Part shown: positions 4,858 through 45,519 of the stretch, in pieces
How the letters are laid out: every line of letters starts with the position of its first letter
How positions within the stretch are numbered: the stretch's first letter is position 1
Origin: Candidatus Omnitrophota bacterium
GTDB lineage: Bacteria; Omnitrophota; Gorgyraeia; 2-01-FULL-45-10
DNA: 64,000 bases
Reading direction: 5' to 3'
Assembly: GCA_026387175.1 (NCBI GenBank)
Contig: JAPLME010000002.1
Span: forward strand, 12,780-76,779
The notes under the pieces: generated by a model
What the model saw: only the letters and a program-made list of their open reading frames with translations
What the model was told of the DNA's origin: nothing
Databases searched by the model: none
Position numbers and translations under genes: made by a program

Positions 4858-4954
4858 CACCGTAACCCGTGCTATGGCGCGGGTTTTTTATTGGAATTAT
4901 TTTAAAATAGTTTGCAACTATTTTGGCACTTTTAGCGTCTTTATATGTAGGGGG
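4858..4954 (+). repeat. Island repeat family 1, copy 1: CCCGTGCTAWGGCGCGGG hairpin + T-tract + TATTTTAAAATA palindrome + TTTGCAACNATTTTGGCACTTTTAGCGTCTTTATATGTAGGGGG
   Basis: About 90% identical to 5951-6048 and 12888-12983. Confidence 0.85.
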
Positions 4955-5950: not shown

Positions 5951-6048
5951 GACCGCAACCCGTGCTAAGGCGCGGGTTTTTTATTTTGAACTATTTTAAA
6001 ATAGTTTGCAACAATTTTGGCACTTTTAGCGTCTTTATATGTAGGGGG
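5951..6048 (+). repeat. Island repeat family 1, copy 2
   Basis: See 4858-4954. Confidence 0.85.
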
Positions 6049-7163: not shown

Positions 7164-7198
7164 CATGGCGCGGGTTTTTTATTGGAATTATTTTACAT
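7164..7198 (+). repeat. Island repeat family 1, truncated copy 3 (hairpin remnant GGCGCGGG + TTTTTTATTGGAATTATTTTA only)
   Basis: Matches the left third of the full repeat. Confidence 0.6.
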
Positions 7199-12887: not shown

Positions 12888-12983
12888 ACCGCAACCCGTG
12901 CTAAAGCGCGGGTTTTTTTATTGGAATTATTTTAAAATAGTTTGCAACAATTTTGGCACTTTTAGCGTCTTTATATGTAGGGG
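12888..12983 (+). repeat. Island repeat family 1, copy 4
   Basis: See 4858-4954. Confidence 0.85.
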
Positions 12984-16620: not shown

Positions 16621-16665
16621 GAATATGAAGAGATGGTCTGATGCCGTGACGAATATGTAATTGTT

Positions 16666-16694
16666 TTGCCTTGATGGCAAACATCCTGTATAAT
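16666..16694 (+). promoter_or_regulatory. Promoter with palindromic operator TTGCCTTGATGGCAA over the -35 box, 8 nt upstream of TGTATAAT
   Basis: Same architecture at 28329-28357. Confidence 0.55.
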
Positions 16695-16718
16695 ATTACT
16701 AAGGGATGGTGCGTGACC

Positions 16719-22287: not shown

Positions 22288-22317
22288 ATTATCATAGGAC
22301 ATGGAGCTGGAGGGCAA

Positions 22318-22701
22318 ATGGCTAAAAAGGTTTTAGTGGTAGATGATGAACCGGATATACTGGAAATGCTTGGGATCCGATTAGAAAGCAATGGTTATAC
22401 GGTTATTACGGCATTTAACAAAGAAGGGTGTTTTAAAAAAGCTACCGAGGAAAATCCGGATCTTATCTTGTTAGATGTTTTGTTGCCGGGGATAGGCGGG
22501 CTTGAAATATGCAAGCTTCTTAAAAAAGATGCTAAAATGAAAGATATCCCGGTTATTATTATAACGGCGTTGATCGGAGAATCGGCTGTTGAGGCAGGAT
22601 TAGAAAGCGGAGCGGTCTGCGTAATAAGTAAACCGTTTGATCCCGCAGATCTTTTAGAGAAAATAGCGGATGTTCTTAAATCCGATCATGAGATAGTGTA
22701 A
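22318..22701 (+). CDS. stand-alone receiver-domain response regulator
   Basis: VLVVDDEPDILE...DLILLDVLLPG. Confidence 0.85.
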   Translation: MAKKVLVVDDEPDILEMLGIRLESNGYTVITAFNKEGCFKKATEENPDLILLDVLLPGIGGLEICKLLKKDAKMKDIPVIIITALIGESAVEAGLESGAVCVISKPFDPADLLEKIADVLKSDHEIV

Positions 22702-24112: not shown

Positions 24113-24128
24113 TTGGAAGTGTAATTAC

Positions 24129-24158
24129 TTTGCCTTCCGGGCCGGCTTTTTGTATAAT
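24129..24158 (+). promoter_or_regulatory. sigma70 promoter TTGCCT-N18-TGTATAAT; ATG 10 nt after the -10 box (leaderless)
   Basis: -35/-10 boxes with extended TG. Confidence 0.5.
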
Positions 24159-24167
24159 GTTACAGGT

Positions 24168-27321: not shown

Positions 27322-27411
27322 GGAGAGATGGCTGAGTGGTTGAAGGCGCACGCCTCGAAAGCGTGTGACCCTTTACAGGGTCCCTGGGTTCGAATCCCAG
27401 TCTCTCCGCCA
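27322..27411 (+). tRNA. tRNA-Ser (anticodon CGA), long variable arm, CCA encoded
   Basis: Hand-folded cloverleaf. Acceptor GGAGAGA/TCTCTCC. Anticodon loop CTCGAAA. T-loop GGTTCGAATCC. Confidence 0.85.
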
Positions 27412-27445
27412 GTTTTGATAATAGGTATATACAGGAATAATATTA

Positions 27446-28155
27446 TGGACAAAAAGACATTAGCATTGCTATTCTGTTTAACCATTACGTGTTCATTTGC
27501 TTTCGCGGAAGATAATACGGTAGAGCCAGCAGGAGTCTATGCTACAATCGACACCAAACCTTCCATCCAGGCAATAAATATATTGAGAACCGGTACGGAT
27601 AAAGAGAAGACGGCGATGGCAATGGTAATTGAATCGCATTCCGATAAATATTGTCCGGCCGTATTCTTTTCTTTGGCAGCGTATCTTTTTGATGTCGGCA
27701 AAACCGACGATGCTTTGTTCTGGTTATACGCGGGGCGGATACGAACACAATATGATATTAAGATATGTACCGATGAAACCGTTGCGGGTGGTTATGAGGA
27801 ATTAAATATGTCTGTGCCGGATCTACTTAAAGTAATACAGTTTGAAAATTTAAATAACACAAAAATAATTGTACAAAAAGCAATTAAATGGGATAAAGAA
27901 ACTCCGATCAATTATGATTCGCGCTGGATAGCTTTGCATGGAATGGGCGCCTTTACGAGGGCTATGGATAACAATAAAAAGAAACCCGTTCTGACTATAC
28001 CCGAAAAAGAGTGGAAGGATGTGGCTGAAAAAAACAGAAAAGAATATTGGGATGCATTCCAGGAAGACCTTAATACCATAACGCCCGAACAGTTCGAACA
28101 GATAAGAGCAAAAATAAAGTCTTTGAAGCAGGAAGCCGCCGCTGCAAAAAAGTGA
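27446..28155 (+). CDS. secreted hypothetical protein; start moved downstream of the tRNA
   Basis: The track ORF 27328 overlaps the tRNA. The first Met after the tRNA gives an MDKKTLALLFCLTITCSFAFA signal peptide. Confidence 0.6.
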
Positions 28156-28328
28156 AAGTAGAAGAATATTCTGGGTATCACTGGGACGGTTTACACGACA
28201 ATCCCCAAGCCTGTCCATGGGGCACAAGAGTTATTTTTCGTAATGACAGGCTTTTCGTGCCGTTTCTTGGCCGACTTTTAGAGACCTACCTATTGCTACA
28301 TACGTCATTCCTAATATATGCAATTGTT

Positions 28329-28357
28329 TTGCCCTGACGGCAAATATCTTGTATAAT
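28329..28357 (+). promoter_or_regulatory. Promoter with palindromic operator TTGCCCTGACGGCAA plus TGTATAAT (second copy of the 16666 architecture)
   Basis: Identical 8-nt spacing between the palindrome and the -10 box. Confidence 0.55.
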
Positions 28358-28363
28358 GCTACT

Positions 28364-28621
28364 GTTGTATTGACAGGAATCACTATGCGGGCAGTGAGCT
28401 CAGACGCGGTTCGAATTGGTTGCACTCGCGTCCGCCATATTTAGTCAGTCTTAGTCAGTTTTATATGGCAACGAGTTGGGGATTCGAAGCGAGGCCGCGC
28501 CGAGCGAATAGCGAGGAAAAGCGCTATGCGCGACAGCGGCCGAGCTGGCTACGCAGGCGAGCTCCGCGAGCCGAAGTAGCCGAATCCCCCAACGGCGCCG
28601 CCAAACAATCCTATTGAAACT
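28364..28621 (+). ncRNA. GC-rich highly structured 5' leader or ncRNA candidate with a long imperfect inverted repeat (GTTGGGGATTCG ... CGAATCCCCCAAC), a TAGTCAGT tandem and the 17-mer AACGGCGCCGCCAAACA
   Basis: Lies between the promoter and the ALDC-like gene. The only ORF is an Arg-rich 65-aa alt-frame artefact. Confidence 0.3.
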
Positions 28622-29338
28622 ATGAAACTATCCAAACTCACAAGCCTCTCCATTGTTCTCCTCGTCATCGCCGGGCTGATCATATCCGGCCAGCAGATCA
28701 AAGACAGGGATACCCTGTATCAGGTCTCCGTTTTGGATGCTCTCATGAAAGGTGATTACGACGGTAAAGTGACCTTGAATGAAATACGCAGGCACGGTGA
28801 TTTTGGCATCGGCACCTTTGACCGGCTCGACGGTGAAGCGATAGAATTAGACGGGATATTCTATCAGGTCAGATCGGATGGAACGGTCCGGCGCCCTTCA
28901 GGTGATATAAGATCCCCTTTCTCCATGGTTAAATTTTTTGGCGCTGATATAGAATTTTCTGTTCCCAGGGAATCCGATTACCTTTCGTTGCAGAAGTTTA
29001 TAGACAGCCGCCTGCCGACCAGGAATATTCCTTATGCGATCAAGGTTGAGGGTAGATTCAGTTATATTAAAACCAGGAGCGTTCCCGCGCAGAATAAGCC
29101 TTATTCTCCACTGTCCGAAGTTGTTAAAAATCAGAGCGTTTTCGAGTTTACTGATATAGCAGGCACCCTGGTAGGTTTCAGGATTCCGGATTATATGAAA
29201 GGTGTTAATATGCCTGGATATCATTTACATTTCATAAGCCGTGATAAAACAAAAGGCGGCCATGTCTTGGCATGCGTGATAGATAGCGCCAAAGCGAATG
29301 TCGATGATATCGATCGTTTCATAATGAGCTGCCCATAA
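28622..29338 (+). CDS. alpha-acetolactate decarboxylase (ALDC)-family protein with N-terminal signal/anchor
   Basis: YQVSVLDALMKGDYDGKVTLNEIRRHGDFGIGTF matches the ALDC core. Confidence 0.6.
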   Translation: MKLSKLTSLSIVLLVIAGLIISGQQIKDRDTLYQVSVLDALMKGDYDGKVTLNEIRRHGDFGIGTFDRLDGEAIELDGIFYQVRSDGTVRRPSGDIRSPFSMVKFFGADIEFSVPRESDYLSLQKFIDSRLPTRNIPYAIKVEGRFSYIKTRSVPAQNKPYSPLSEVVKNQSVFEFTDIAGTLVGFRIPDYMKGVNMPGYHLHFISRDKTKGGHVLACVIDSAKANVDDIDRFIMSCP

Positions 29339-32254: not shown

Positions 32255-32345
32255 GGAGAGATGCCGGAGCGGTTGAACGGGCGCGCCTGGAAAGTGCGTG
32301 ACCTCCAAAAGGGGTCCTAGGGTTCGAATCCCTATCTCTCCGCCA
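32255..32345 (+). tRNA. tRNA-Ser (anticodon GGA), CCA encoded
   Basis: Cloverleaf: GGAGAGA acceptor, CTGGAAA anticodon loop, long variable arm, GGTTCGAATCC T-loop. Confidence 0.85.
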
Positions 32346-32462
32346 ATTTTTCCGATAAGGAAAAAATGAGCGATGCCGTGAAAGCCCGAACGTCGCGATA
32401 AGCGACGTAGGCCGAAACGGCGCCGCCAAACATTACAACCTTTGGTATAAGTCAGAGATCAT

Positions 32463-45111: not shown

Positions 45112-45141
45112 CTAAAGAAAACAAATTTCACGGGAGGGAAA

Positions 45142-45519
45142 ATGGCTAAGAAGATTTTAGTGGTAGATGATGAACCCGGTATGGTAAGGCTGCTGAGAGA
45201 TATTTTAGAGGACGAAGGTTATGCGGTTATCGAAGCCTCTAACGGAGAAGAGTGTCTCGAAAAGGCGGCCAAAAAAATTCCCGACCTAATTTTGCTGGAC
45301 GTGATGCTGACCGGGCCCAGCGGCCTTTCGATATGCAAGCGTCTCAAAGATAATGCTGTAACGAAAGATATTCCTATCATTCTGGTAACGGCGCTATTGG
45401 GCGAAGGTATCCAGGAGAAAGGAGCGGAAAGCGGGGCGGCATATGTAATAAGCAAGCCCTATGACTCCAATGATCTCCTGTGGGAGATAGAGGACGCGAT
45501 CAAGAAAAGTAAGGTCTAG
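45142..45519 (+). CDS. stand-alone receiver-domain response regulator (paralog of 22318)
   Basis: KILVVDDEPGMV...DLILLDVML. Confidence 0.85.
   Translation: MAKKILVVDDEPGMVRLLRDILEDEGYAVIEASNGEECLEKAAKKIPDLILLDVMLTGPSGLSICKRLKDNAVTKDIPIILVTALLGEGIQEKGAESGAAYVISKPYDSNDLLWEIEDAIKKSKV

Follow-up and report, generated by a model that had tools for sequence, protein, structure and literature searches.

The window, by which we mean the whole 64-kb stretch of DNA analysed here, comes from a Candidatus Omnitrophica metagenome-assembled genome (MAG), and our subject is the leader of its gene for alpha-acetolactate decarboxylase (ALDC; 28622-29338; Pfam PF03306, E 6e-79). An earlier note on this DNA had described 28364-28621 as a long structured RNA and proposed a riboswitch, an attenuator or a control element shared with the leader of a SsuA-like gene further downstream. 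Here we show that the stretch 28466-28603 within the leader is one copy of a family of elements normally attached 3' of tRNA genes. All genes and leader parts described in this and the next three paragraphs lie on the plus strand.

Upstream of ALDC lie a tRNA-Ser(CGA) gene (27322-27411; found by ARAGORN, and by Rfam at 57 bits), the gene of a signal-peptide protein of unknown function, ORF236 (27445-28155), which stands between this tRNA and the element, and a 48-nt promoter box (28316-28363). A mechanical open reading frame (ORF) at 27328-28155 begins inside tRNA-Ser(CGA); the plausible protein start is the ATG at 27445, which gives a signal-peptide-like N-terminus (MDKKTLALLF...). The promoter is near-consensus (TTGCCC-17-TATAAT, 28329-28357), with its -35 at 28329-28334 and its -10 at 28352-28357. 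It supports transcription on the plus strand through the element into ALDC, with the element as 5' untranslated region (UTR), in agreement with the earlier description of the region as transcribed. The box recurs at 16653-16700, 24117-24164 and 28316-28363 with 69-85% identity, holds a small hairpin (TTTGCC..GGCAAA) between the -35-like TTGCC and TGTATAAT, and may be a regulon-specific or mobile promoter module. The boxes at 16653 and 24117 lie about 20 nt upstream of start codons, and the leader of about 260 nt at 28364 is therefore anomalous.

From 5' to 3', the leader is made up of a hairpin, a spacer, the element and a short trailer. The hairpin (28386-28437) contains GGTTCGAAT (28408-28416) within the stem GACGCG (28403-28408)/CGCGTC (28427-28432) and ends in TCCGCCA, a pseudo tRNA-Ser 3' end. 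The spacer (28438-28465) has two TTAGTCAGT repeats, with an AGTCAG/GACAG motif common to the family, and includes the TAGTCAGT tandem (copies at 28442-28449 and 28452-28459). The element (28466-28603), which has a type A core, forms a three-way junction from the helices P0, P1-P2 and P3 and closes with a pseudo-tRNA 3' tail whose last letters are CCA. Its P0 5' arm, GTTGGGGATTCG (28475-28486), forms an inverted repeat with CGAATCCCCCAAC (28581-28593) at the start of the 3' arm CGAATCCCCCAACGGCGCCGCCA (28581-28603), and the trailer between the end of the unit and the ATG of ALDC is 18 nt long. The inverted repeat, hairpin motif, tandem and shared 17-mer (see below) that had been listed for the leader were thus all located where they had been reported.

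The 267-nt leader folds more stably than its shuffles (z -2.95), and the 138-nt element does so by itself (z -4.86). In the minimum-free-energy fold of the leader, and in that fold only, spacer positions 28455-28464 pair with the start-codon region. The only ORF overlapping the leader is a mechanical one of 65 aa with a TTG start (28420-28617) that has no support as coding sequence, so the absence of a credible ORF was noted correctly. We found no terminator-like site on the plus strand within 28364-28621, and the ATG of ALDC is not preceded by a Shine-Dalgarno sequence, which leaves none to sequester. The Shine-Dalgarno sequence is missing before ALDC in all three close species, namely the window and the orthologue loci L128 and L131 (L-numbers denote the loci compared with the window, which are orthologue loci, Logan contigs and metagenome contigs).

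A family of structured elements

One metagenome scan with the hairpin-apex pattern CGAATAG-N3-6-AAAAG-N-GCTATGC gave 27 loci, with the whole element in 14. An alignment of 15 copies, with a consensus of 33 base pairs and compensatory changes in 19 of them, was used to build a covariance model, R1. This model matches 26 strong copies in 19 loci at 92-152 bits; its single match in the window, 28466-28603, covers the full model (140 bits, E 3e-37). Unrelated control loci amounting to 703 kb gave no match, and a search of the window by blastn-short and the covariance model produced no copy beyond 28466-28603. Members of a direct-repeat family of the window, D5, were considered as further copies and rejected as chance matches inside genes. 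Further copies occur in freshwater and sediment metagenomes.

The covariation was tested on a 28-row alignment of R1 matches (26 distinct sequences), in which 97.7% of the cells fall in standard pairs, compared with 25-42% when the partners are slid by 1-3 columns. Both sides have changed in 20 of the 33 pairs, and none of 500 shuffles reached the observed values. Across the family, elements are 126-138 nt long and fold into a three-way junction with a closing helix P0, formed by the 5' and 3' arms, and the branches P1-P2 and P3. The single strands of P1-P2 are invariant (GAAGC, GAGGAAAAG and CGACAG), and P3 is variable, with a 7-bp tip and a triloop of UCC, UAU or ACC. Two main core subtypes occur, A (including the window) and B (including L128); type A cores of diverged genomes are 100% identical over some 60 nt. 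Among the 729 paired cells we counted a single G.T (G.U), eight A.C and nine other mismatches. Wobble pairs are nearly absent, a hint of a constraint at the DNA level or on two strands, but the independent lineages are few. Reading the functional strand from the wobble pairs was tried and abandoned, since the non-Watson-Crick cells are too few and the A.C cells lie mostly at the end of P0.

A scan with Rfam 15, at gathering as well as E-value/permissive thresholds, gave nothing over the element in the window or in seven family loci, which speaks against a known RNA family. ARAGORN and Rfam identified only the two real tRNAs, ruling out a transfer-messenger RNA (tmRNA), a permuted tmRNA or a tRNA pseudogene. 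Viral contigs scanned with two core patterns gave no match either. We found no description of such an element in the full-text literature within the limited reach of our search, and the family is apparently undescribed. Seven independent Logan assemblies that encode an identical ALDC protein all start inside the invariant type A core (window 28492-28531), which is what several copies of the core in those metagenomes would lead one to expect; the element systematically breaks assemblies.

Attachment to tRNA genes

Most of the copies have a tRNA gene immediately on their 5' side; according to ARAGORN this is so in 13 loci, with Gln, Val, Met, Leu(gag), Leu(cag), His, Ser(tga), Glu and Ala represented. 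Eleven copies have a 3' arm that perfectly repeats 20-23 nt of the adjacent tRNA, beginning at C56 of the T-loop and reaching A76; it always ends at CCA and canonically measures 21 nt. A full unit therefore reads tRNA...CCA, a spacer of 19-50 nt, the 5' arm, the conserved core and the 3' arm, and its strand is that of the tRNA in every case. The 5' arm is the reverse complement of the 3' strand of the T-loop/T-stem; it changes with the tRNA type (GGGATTTG, GGACTTG, GGGAGTTG, GAGTCG and GGATTCG) and covaries with the 3' arm, and some 12-13 nt of the acceptor 3' strand together with NCCA stay as an unpaired tail. In the window copy, the 3' arm CGAATCCCCCAACGGCGCCGCCA holds the place of the C56-A76 repeat. 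Most copies carry the motif AGTCAG or GACAG in their spacers (L156, L164, L165, L145, L143, L160 and L161). The TAGTCAGT tandem of the window is the serine-type version of this motif, like those of L156 and L164, and the window spacer matches that of L156 over 18 nt at 94%.

Units also occur in tandem. In L164, tRNA-Ser(TGA) is followed by a type A and then a type B unit; the arrays of L143 and L158 comprise two and four units, and one L158 copy lies beyond the tRNA-Glu terminator. Terminator hairpins follow the distal CCA. L165 (271-2888) holds three copies within 2.6 kb, the first of which follows tRNA-His. The two orphans, at 1689-1820 and 2757-2888, have a foreign His-like 3' arm and each come after an ...ACCCCA remnant, and between them lie a Gp49/HigB-like and helix-turn-helix/HigA-like pair and a DUF4136 gene, a layout that resembles a cassette array. 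The distal repeat of L145 differs from its tRNA at one base (C66 versus T66), and that base is the one found in tRNA-Met of L149 and L151. The genes that neighbour the units are ordinary chromosomal ones, such as rpoD, dnaG and genes for biotin synthesis.

Two structures outside the element resemble parts of this arrangement. The hairpin at 28386-28437 of the window stands where the L156 and L164 arrays have the tRNA or the 3' arm of the previous unit, a likeness of position only, and it may be a decayed remnant. A truncated copy of the element was considered for this hairpin and rejected, its similarity to helix P3 with the 3' arm not being significant (106-162 of 2000 shuffles) and the covariance model giving no match. 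In L166, at 405-518, a tRNA-Glu terminator is followed by a 14-nt inverted repeat with T-loop-like arms (CTGTCGAAGGATTT and AAATCCTTCGGCAG) around an unrelated A/T-rich interior of 86 nt. A frame of this kind thus encloses a different core here, and it may represent another tRNA-linked hairpin family.

Orthologous loci and the shared 17-mer

We compared five loci with ALDC orthologues (L128-L132), among which only L128 has the element. In L128, whose ALDC is 80% identical, the synteny of ALDC, HD-GYP and cellulase genes is as in the window, and a homologue of the long hairpin is present. One of its stems has changed from GGCCGC/GCGGCC in the window to AATTGC/GCAATT, a block of compensatory changes, and its 3' arm continues into GAATCCCAGTCTCTCCGCCA, the exact 3' end of the window's tRNA-Ser(CGA), which in the window lies 1.2 kb upstream. 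In L131 (82% identity), the 3' half of tRNA-Ser(CGA) ends 37 nt before the ATG of ALDC, with neither the GC-rich hairpin nor the 17-mer. Between that tRNA and ALDC (L131 1-100) there is only a hairpin that takes in CCA. The layout of L131 suggests a tRNA-mRNA co-transcript in which the 5' end of the ALDC message is made by tRNA 3' processing. The more distant L129, L130 and L132 have short unrelated spacers before ALDC. Of the proposed structured RNA, the central 138 nt thus stand as a conserved and strongly covarying unit, but the element is not kept upstream of the ALDC orthologues L129-L132.

The alignments with L131 and L128 place tRNA-Ser(CGA) or its 3' end directly upstream of ALDC in the relatives; ORF236 and the promoter box between this tRNA and the unit occur in the window genome only. 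Homologues of ORF236 (L133, L134, L137 and L138) stand in other contexts where neither a tRNA nor an element adjoins them, and a mobile cassette made of ORF236 and the element is therefore unsupported. At the ALDC site itself, L131 is empty, whereas a type B unit occupies L128 and a type A unit the window; the three belong to different species, and the L128 contig does not reach the left junction. The window and L128 units nevertheless share their 5' flank, CAAC(G/C)AG(T/G)TGGGGATTCGAAGC (window 28466-28491 versus L128 1-25). The subtype differs within near-identical spacers and arms in three comparisons, namely the window and L128, L148 1402-1537 and L166 935-1064, and the two units of L143 (18-295), and it looks as if cores had been exchanged inside a constant frame.

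The 17-mer AACGGCGCCGCCAAACA occurs at 28591-28607 and 32416-32432, which are its sole two matches in the 64 kb even at three mismatches, and none of 100 dinucleotide shuffles had two or more copies. As had been pointed out before, each copy precedes a start codon, ending 14 nt (copy 1) and 30 nt (copy 2) ahead of the ATG. Copy 1 is made up of the 13 nt that close the 3' arm (AAC-GGCGCC-G-CCA) and of four trailer nucleotides, AACA. Copy 2 lies 70 nt past the tRNA-Ser(GGA) gene (32255-32345, plus strand; ARAGORN), at the end of a GC-rich hairpin. There it belongs to a trailer module (32346-32432, plus strand; fold z -4.9) that comprises an A/T hairpin beside CCA and the GC-rich, P3-like hairpin (32368-32428) and ends with GTAGGCCGAAACGGCGCCGCCA and then AACA. 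The match between the copies extends upstream as CGA(A/C)GTA(G)GCCGA...AACGGCGCCGCCAAACA, and its score of 37 was reached in 0 of 2000 shuffles.

The earlier expectation that the 17-mer recurs in orthologous leaders held in part: it is kept at 15 of 17 positions in L140, the leader of a SsuA-like orthologue, and is recognisable in L128, but is absent from L131 and L139. L140 also keeps tRNA-Ser(GGA), the CCA-containing A/T hairpin, a perfect 8-bp hairpin with a UCC triloop (P3-like) and CGGCGCCGCCAAACATTAC. In L128, the tRNA-Ser(CGA) copy is followed by 64 nt of the same trailer module (score 84, in 0 of 2000 shuffles), a stretch that L131 lacks. Both the tRNA and the 17-mer are missing from L139, a further SsuA orthologue. 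From this pattern of conservation, the 17-mer is part of a tRNA-Ser trailer module ending in a pseudo-tRNA 3' end. The module is common to both tRNA-Ser loci within a genome and has no tie to genes for secreted proteins. R1 gives no match to the tRNA-Ser(GGA) trailer, of which only about 30 nt at the 3' end align with the element. Because the model does not detect it, we only infer that the trailer module is a decayed unit.

A scan of genome contigs with the 17-mer returned at least 120 matches and was set aside. The matches listed are all chance matches in coding regions of unrelated phyla, apart from one insertion-sequence-like repeat; among them none has the flanks of the window, and the window's own genome does not appear. 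In an uncultured alphaproteobacterial MAG (contigs CAWJPD01...), at least ten identical insertion-sequence-like, apparently coding repeats contain the 17-mer by chance (L008, L010, L019, L042, L051, L062, L082, L085, L094 and L116); they are unrelated.

Origin of the family and other repeats in the window

We favour, with a probability of roughly 0.55, the explanation that these units are miniature mobile elements, non-autonomous and directed at the T-loop-to-CCA segment of tRNA genes. In its favour count the linkage to tRNA genes, the exact C56-A76 repeats, the tandem arrays, the empty and occupied ALDC sites, the different subtypes within shared flanks, the L165 orphans with their foreign arm, the single-base difference in L145 and the breaks of the Logan assemblies. 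Since each insertion would leave or bring a copy of C56-A76, the tRNA would remain whole and a new target would arise, and this would account for the tandem arrays. A trans-acting enzyme would recognise the three-way junction together with the spacer motif as a cis-acting module, in the form of either folded DNA or RNA. For the window copy, we infer an orphan, decayed passenger that is transcribed as the 5' UTR of ALDC and senses no ligand. ALDC is downstream of the element without a functional tie to it; the element gives this gene at most a stable 5' structure, and the consequence is probably small.

The nearest precedent is offered by integrative elements that use the T-loop, such as Ms6 and P4-like islands. 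They likewise have a direct repeat from the T-loop to the tRNA 3' end, leave the tRNA intact, accrete in tandem and produce partial tRNA copies (PMC1762012, PMC9897764). In T-loop integrases, attP and attB coincide over a stretch that extends from T-arm to tRNA 3' end and in Ms6 gives an attP core of 26 nt (PMC1762012), and partial tRNA copies are the usual product of integration into tRNA genes, which are integration hot spots (PMC9897764). In contrast to these elements, our units are only about 150-190 bp long, have no ORF or integrase, carry one core at no fewer than nine tRNA species, have a 5' arm complementary to the repeat and enclose a covarying three-way junction. The repeat from the T-loop is present in 11 copies of the family, but not in the window copy, with its 23-nt arm unlike both tRNA-Ser.

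Several observations weigh against a mobile element. Genes for a recombinase, transposase or reverse transcriptase are found neither inside the units nor consistently beside them, and none of the 23 flanking ORFs scanned in the window and L165 has an integrase domain. A classical integrase uses one tRNA, yet the same core follows at least nine tRNA species, always with the matching repeat, and the repeat ends exactly at the mature tRNA 3' end, which also argues against a conventional integrase. Simple T-loop integration predicts that the distal-most 3' arm of L143 should be the end of tRNA-Gln, and it is not. The core subtype can differ although spacer and arms stay with the locus, which no simple insertion model predicts. 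We saw no excision product, no circle and no polymorphism within a species; the ALDC loci compared above (L131, L128 and the window) come from different species with 80-82% protein identity. Covarying stems beside very strongly conserved single-stranded core segments are just as typical of a cellular RNA with a function. Finally, the 3' arm of the window copy has 23 nt, two more than the canonical 21, and matches neither tRNA-Ser of the window, although its first 13 nt pair well with the 5' arm. This arm could come from a tRNA outside the window that ends in CGAATCCCCCAACGGCGCC-G-CCA, for instance a Sec-like tRNA, an allo-tRNA or one whose acceptor stem has 9 bp; the other possibility is a deletion fusion of GAATCCC and the tRNA-Ser trailer module.

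The alternative that we take most seriously, though we consider it unlikely, is that the copies are small RNA genes co-transcribed with tRNAs, in which the GAGGAAAAG and CGACAG junction binds a protein or catalyses a reaction. The tail would mimic a tRNA 3' end and serve, for example, as a guide, a decoy or a substrate for processing or repair, the copies would have spread by duplication and been kept identical by selection or gene conversion, and the window copy would be a member displaced into an mRNA leader. Covariation around a variable P3 and invariant loops is the classic signature of a functional RNA, and the identity of the type A core across diverged genomes, the constant orientation with the tRNA, the terminator hairpins past the distal CCA and the housekeeping contexts (rpoD/dnaG and biotin genes) all fit. 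The units resemble tRNA-linked RNAs, such as small RNAs from 3' external transcribed spacers, tmRNA and tRNA-like domains, in lying on the same strand 3' of a tRNA and in their tRNA-type CCA end. They also recall the hepatitis delta virus-like theta ribozymes, which lie downstream of phage tRNAs. However, the element, unlike such RNAs, holds a duplicated tRNA segment, and in contrast to tRNA and tmRNA it does not mimic an acceptor/T-arm, with C56-C63 paired with the 5' arm and the T-loop half thus buried in P0. A small RNA gene would still need a copying mechanism for the exact 3' ends of nine or more tRNAs, and the tandem arrays, subtype swapping and empty orthologous sites point to turnover. 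One G.U among 729 paired cells, against eight A.C, is unusual under a constraint at the RNA level, one copy of L158 lies past the tRNA-Glu terminator, and known RNA families gave no match.

Two further explanations concern the window copy more directly. Functionless debris, in which attL/attR scars of integrase-bearing islands were stacked at tRNA-Ser by integration, excision and inversion around an incidental GC-rich interior, seems very improbable. It would account for the three tRNA-3'-end-like fragments within 240 nt (28408-28437 on the plus, 28466-28488 on the minus and 28581-28603 on the plus strand) and accord with tRNA genes as integration hot spots (PMC9897764) and with the HigBA-like pair between the L165 copies. 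However, the interior belongs to a family with 20 covarying pairs at many tRNA types in many genomes, and random scars would lose the three-way junction. No integrase was seen near the arrays, and the different tRNAs and flanks exclude a single recent set of duplicates. Least credible of all is the original proposal that the leader of about 250 nt is a riboswitch or attenuator of ALDC and the 17-mer an operator or translation-control site of two secreted-protein genes. As in riboswitches and attenuators, a long and stable structured 5' UTR lies between a strong predicted promoter and the start codon, which the minimum-free-energy fold draws into pairing, and the 17-mer stands just before two start codons and is kept in L140. 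Yet this proposal has largely been refuted by the comparison of orthologues. ALDC in L129, L130, L131 and L132 has no element and the SsuA orthologue in L139 no 17-mer, so the element is not conserved with the downstream gene as a riboswitch would be; the 25 other copies of the element adjoin tRNAs or stand in unrelated contexts, whatever gene comes next, and the family is defined by its linkage to tRNA. The leader has no expression platform, that is, neither a terminator nor a Shine-Dalgarno sequence to sequester, and no Rfam match. The 17-mer marks the 3' boundary of a tRNA-Ser-linked unit in every instance, and it fails as a control element because both copies are explained as the ends of such repeat units.

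Returning to the mobile element that we favour, we compared it with other small mobile structures. Integron attC sites are also structured imperfect palindromes of about 60-140 nt with a conserved fold and form arrays with small genes, including a toxin-antitoxin pair as in L165, and the lack of wobble pairs in the element would fit a folded single-stranded DNA substrate. Unlike attC sites, the element has no R''/R' core sites (RYYYAAC...GTTRRRY); by inspection of the alignment, GTT/AAC is confined to the window copy, where the order is reversed. Neither IntI nor attI was seen; the units are anchored at tRNA 3' ends, and their core sequence is highly conserved across genomes. Miniature inverted-repeat transposable elements (MITEs), repetitive extragenic palindromic (REP) sequences and bacterial interspersed mosaic elements (BIMEs) are likewise small, non-coding, repeated, hairpin-forming and intergenic, and can land in 5' UTRs. 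The P0 arms are similar to the terminal inverted repeats of a MITE, but there is no flanking target-site duplication and the sites are tRNA 3' ends rather than random ones; one half of the inverted repeat is a duplicated tRNA end. In contrast to REP/BIME, which are high-copy palindromes of 20-40 nt with a GTAG head, the element has no REP-associated tyrosine transposase, is present once in 64 kb and measures 126-138 nt, and GTAGCC is found in P3 of some copies only.

A more speculative extension, which we regard as doubtful, is a new class of mobile element in which a folded RNA or single strand specifies insertion and the 5' arm is a programmable guide to the T-loop/T-stem of the tRNA. The duplication of C56-A76 would then result from an RNA-guided, ribozyme-assisted or Cas1-like staggered integration. 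If mobility is the correct explanation, an uncultured bacterial lineage carries many copies of a small structured element that copies the last 21 bases of tRNAs with single-base precision, and its target choice is set by the tRNA landmarks C56 and the CCA end, for which known tRNA-specific integrases hardly account. A structured RNA or DNA family with good covariation is missing from Rfam and is a candidate ribozyme or guide. For annotation, the units call for caution, as they break short-read assemblies, make pseudo-tRNA 3' ends and mimic riboswitch leaders in 5' UTRs.

Two other repeats were found in the window. An intergenic repeat of 96 nt with 76-95% identity lies at 4858-4953, 5952-6047 and 12888-12983, with a partial copy at 7165-7195. 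It consists of a terminator-like hairpin followed by a conserved A/T-rich block ending in TATATGTAGGGG, and it parts single genes of nuclease or defence type (Shedu SduA_C, NERD, YhcG PDDEXK and ORF6N) and an ORF of 1838 aa, a layout reminiscent of a cassette array, or of a defence island whose junction is repeated. The other repeat, of 50 nt at 22309-22358 and 45133-45182 (90% identity), covers a ribosome-binding site and first codons (GGAGGG.AAATGGCTAA.AAG.TTTTAGTGGTAGATGATGAACC) and probably represents the N-termini of paralogous response regulators.

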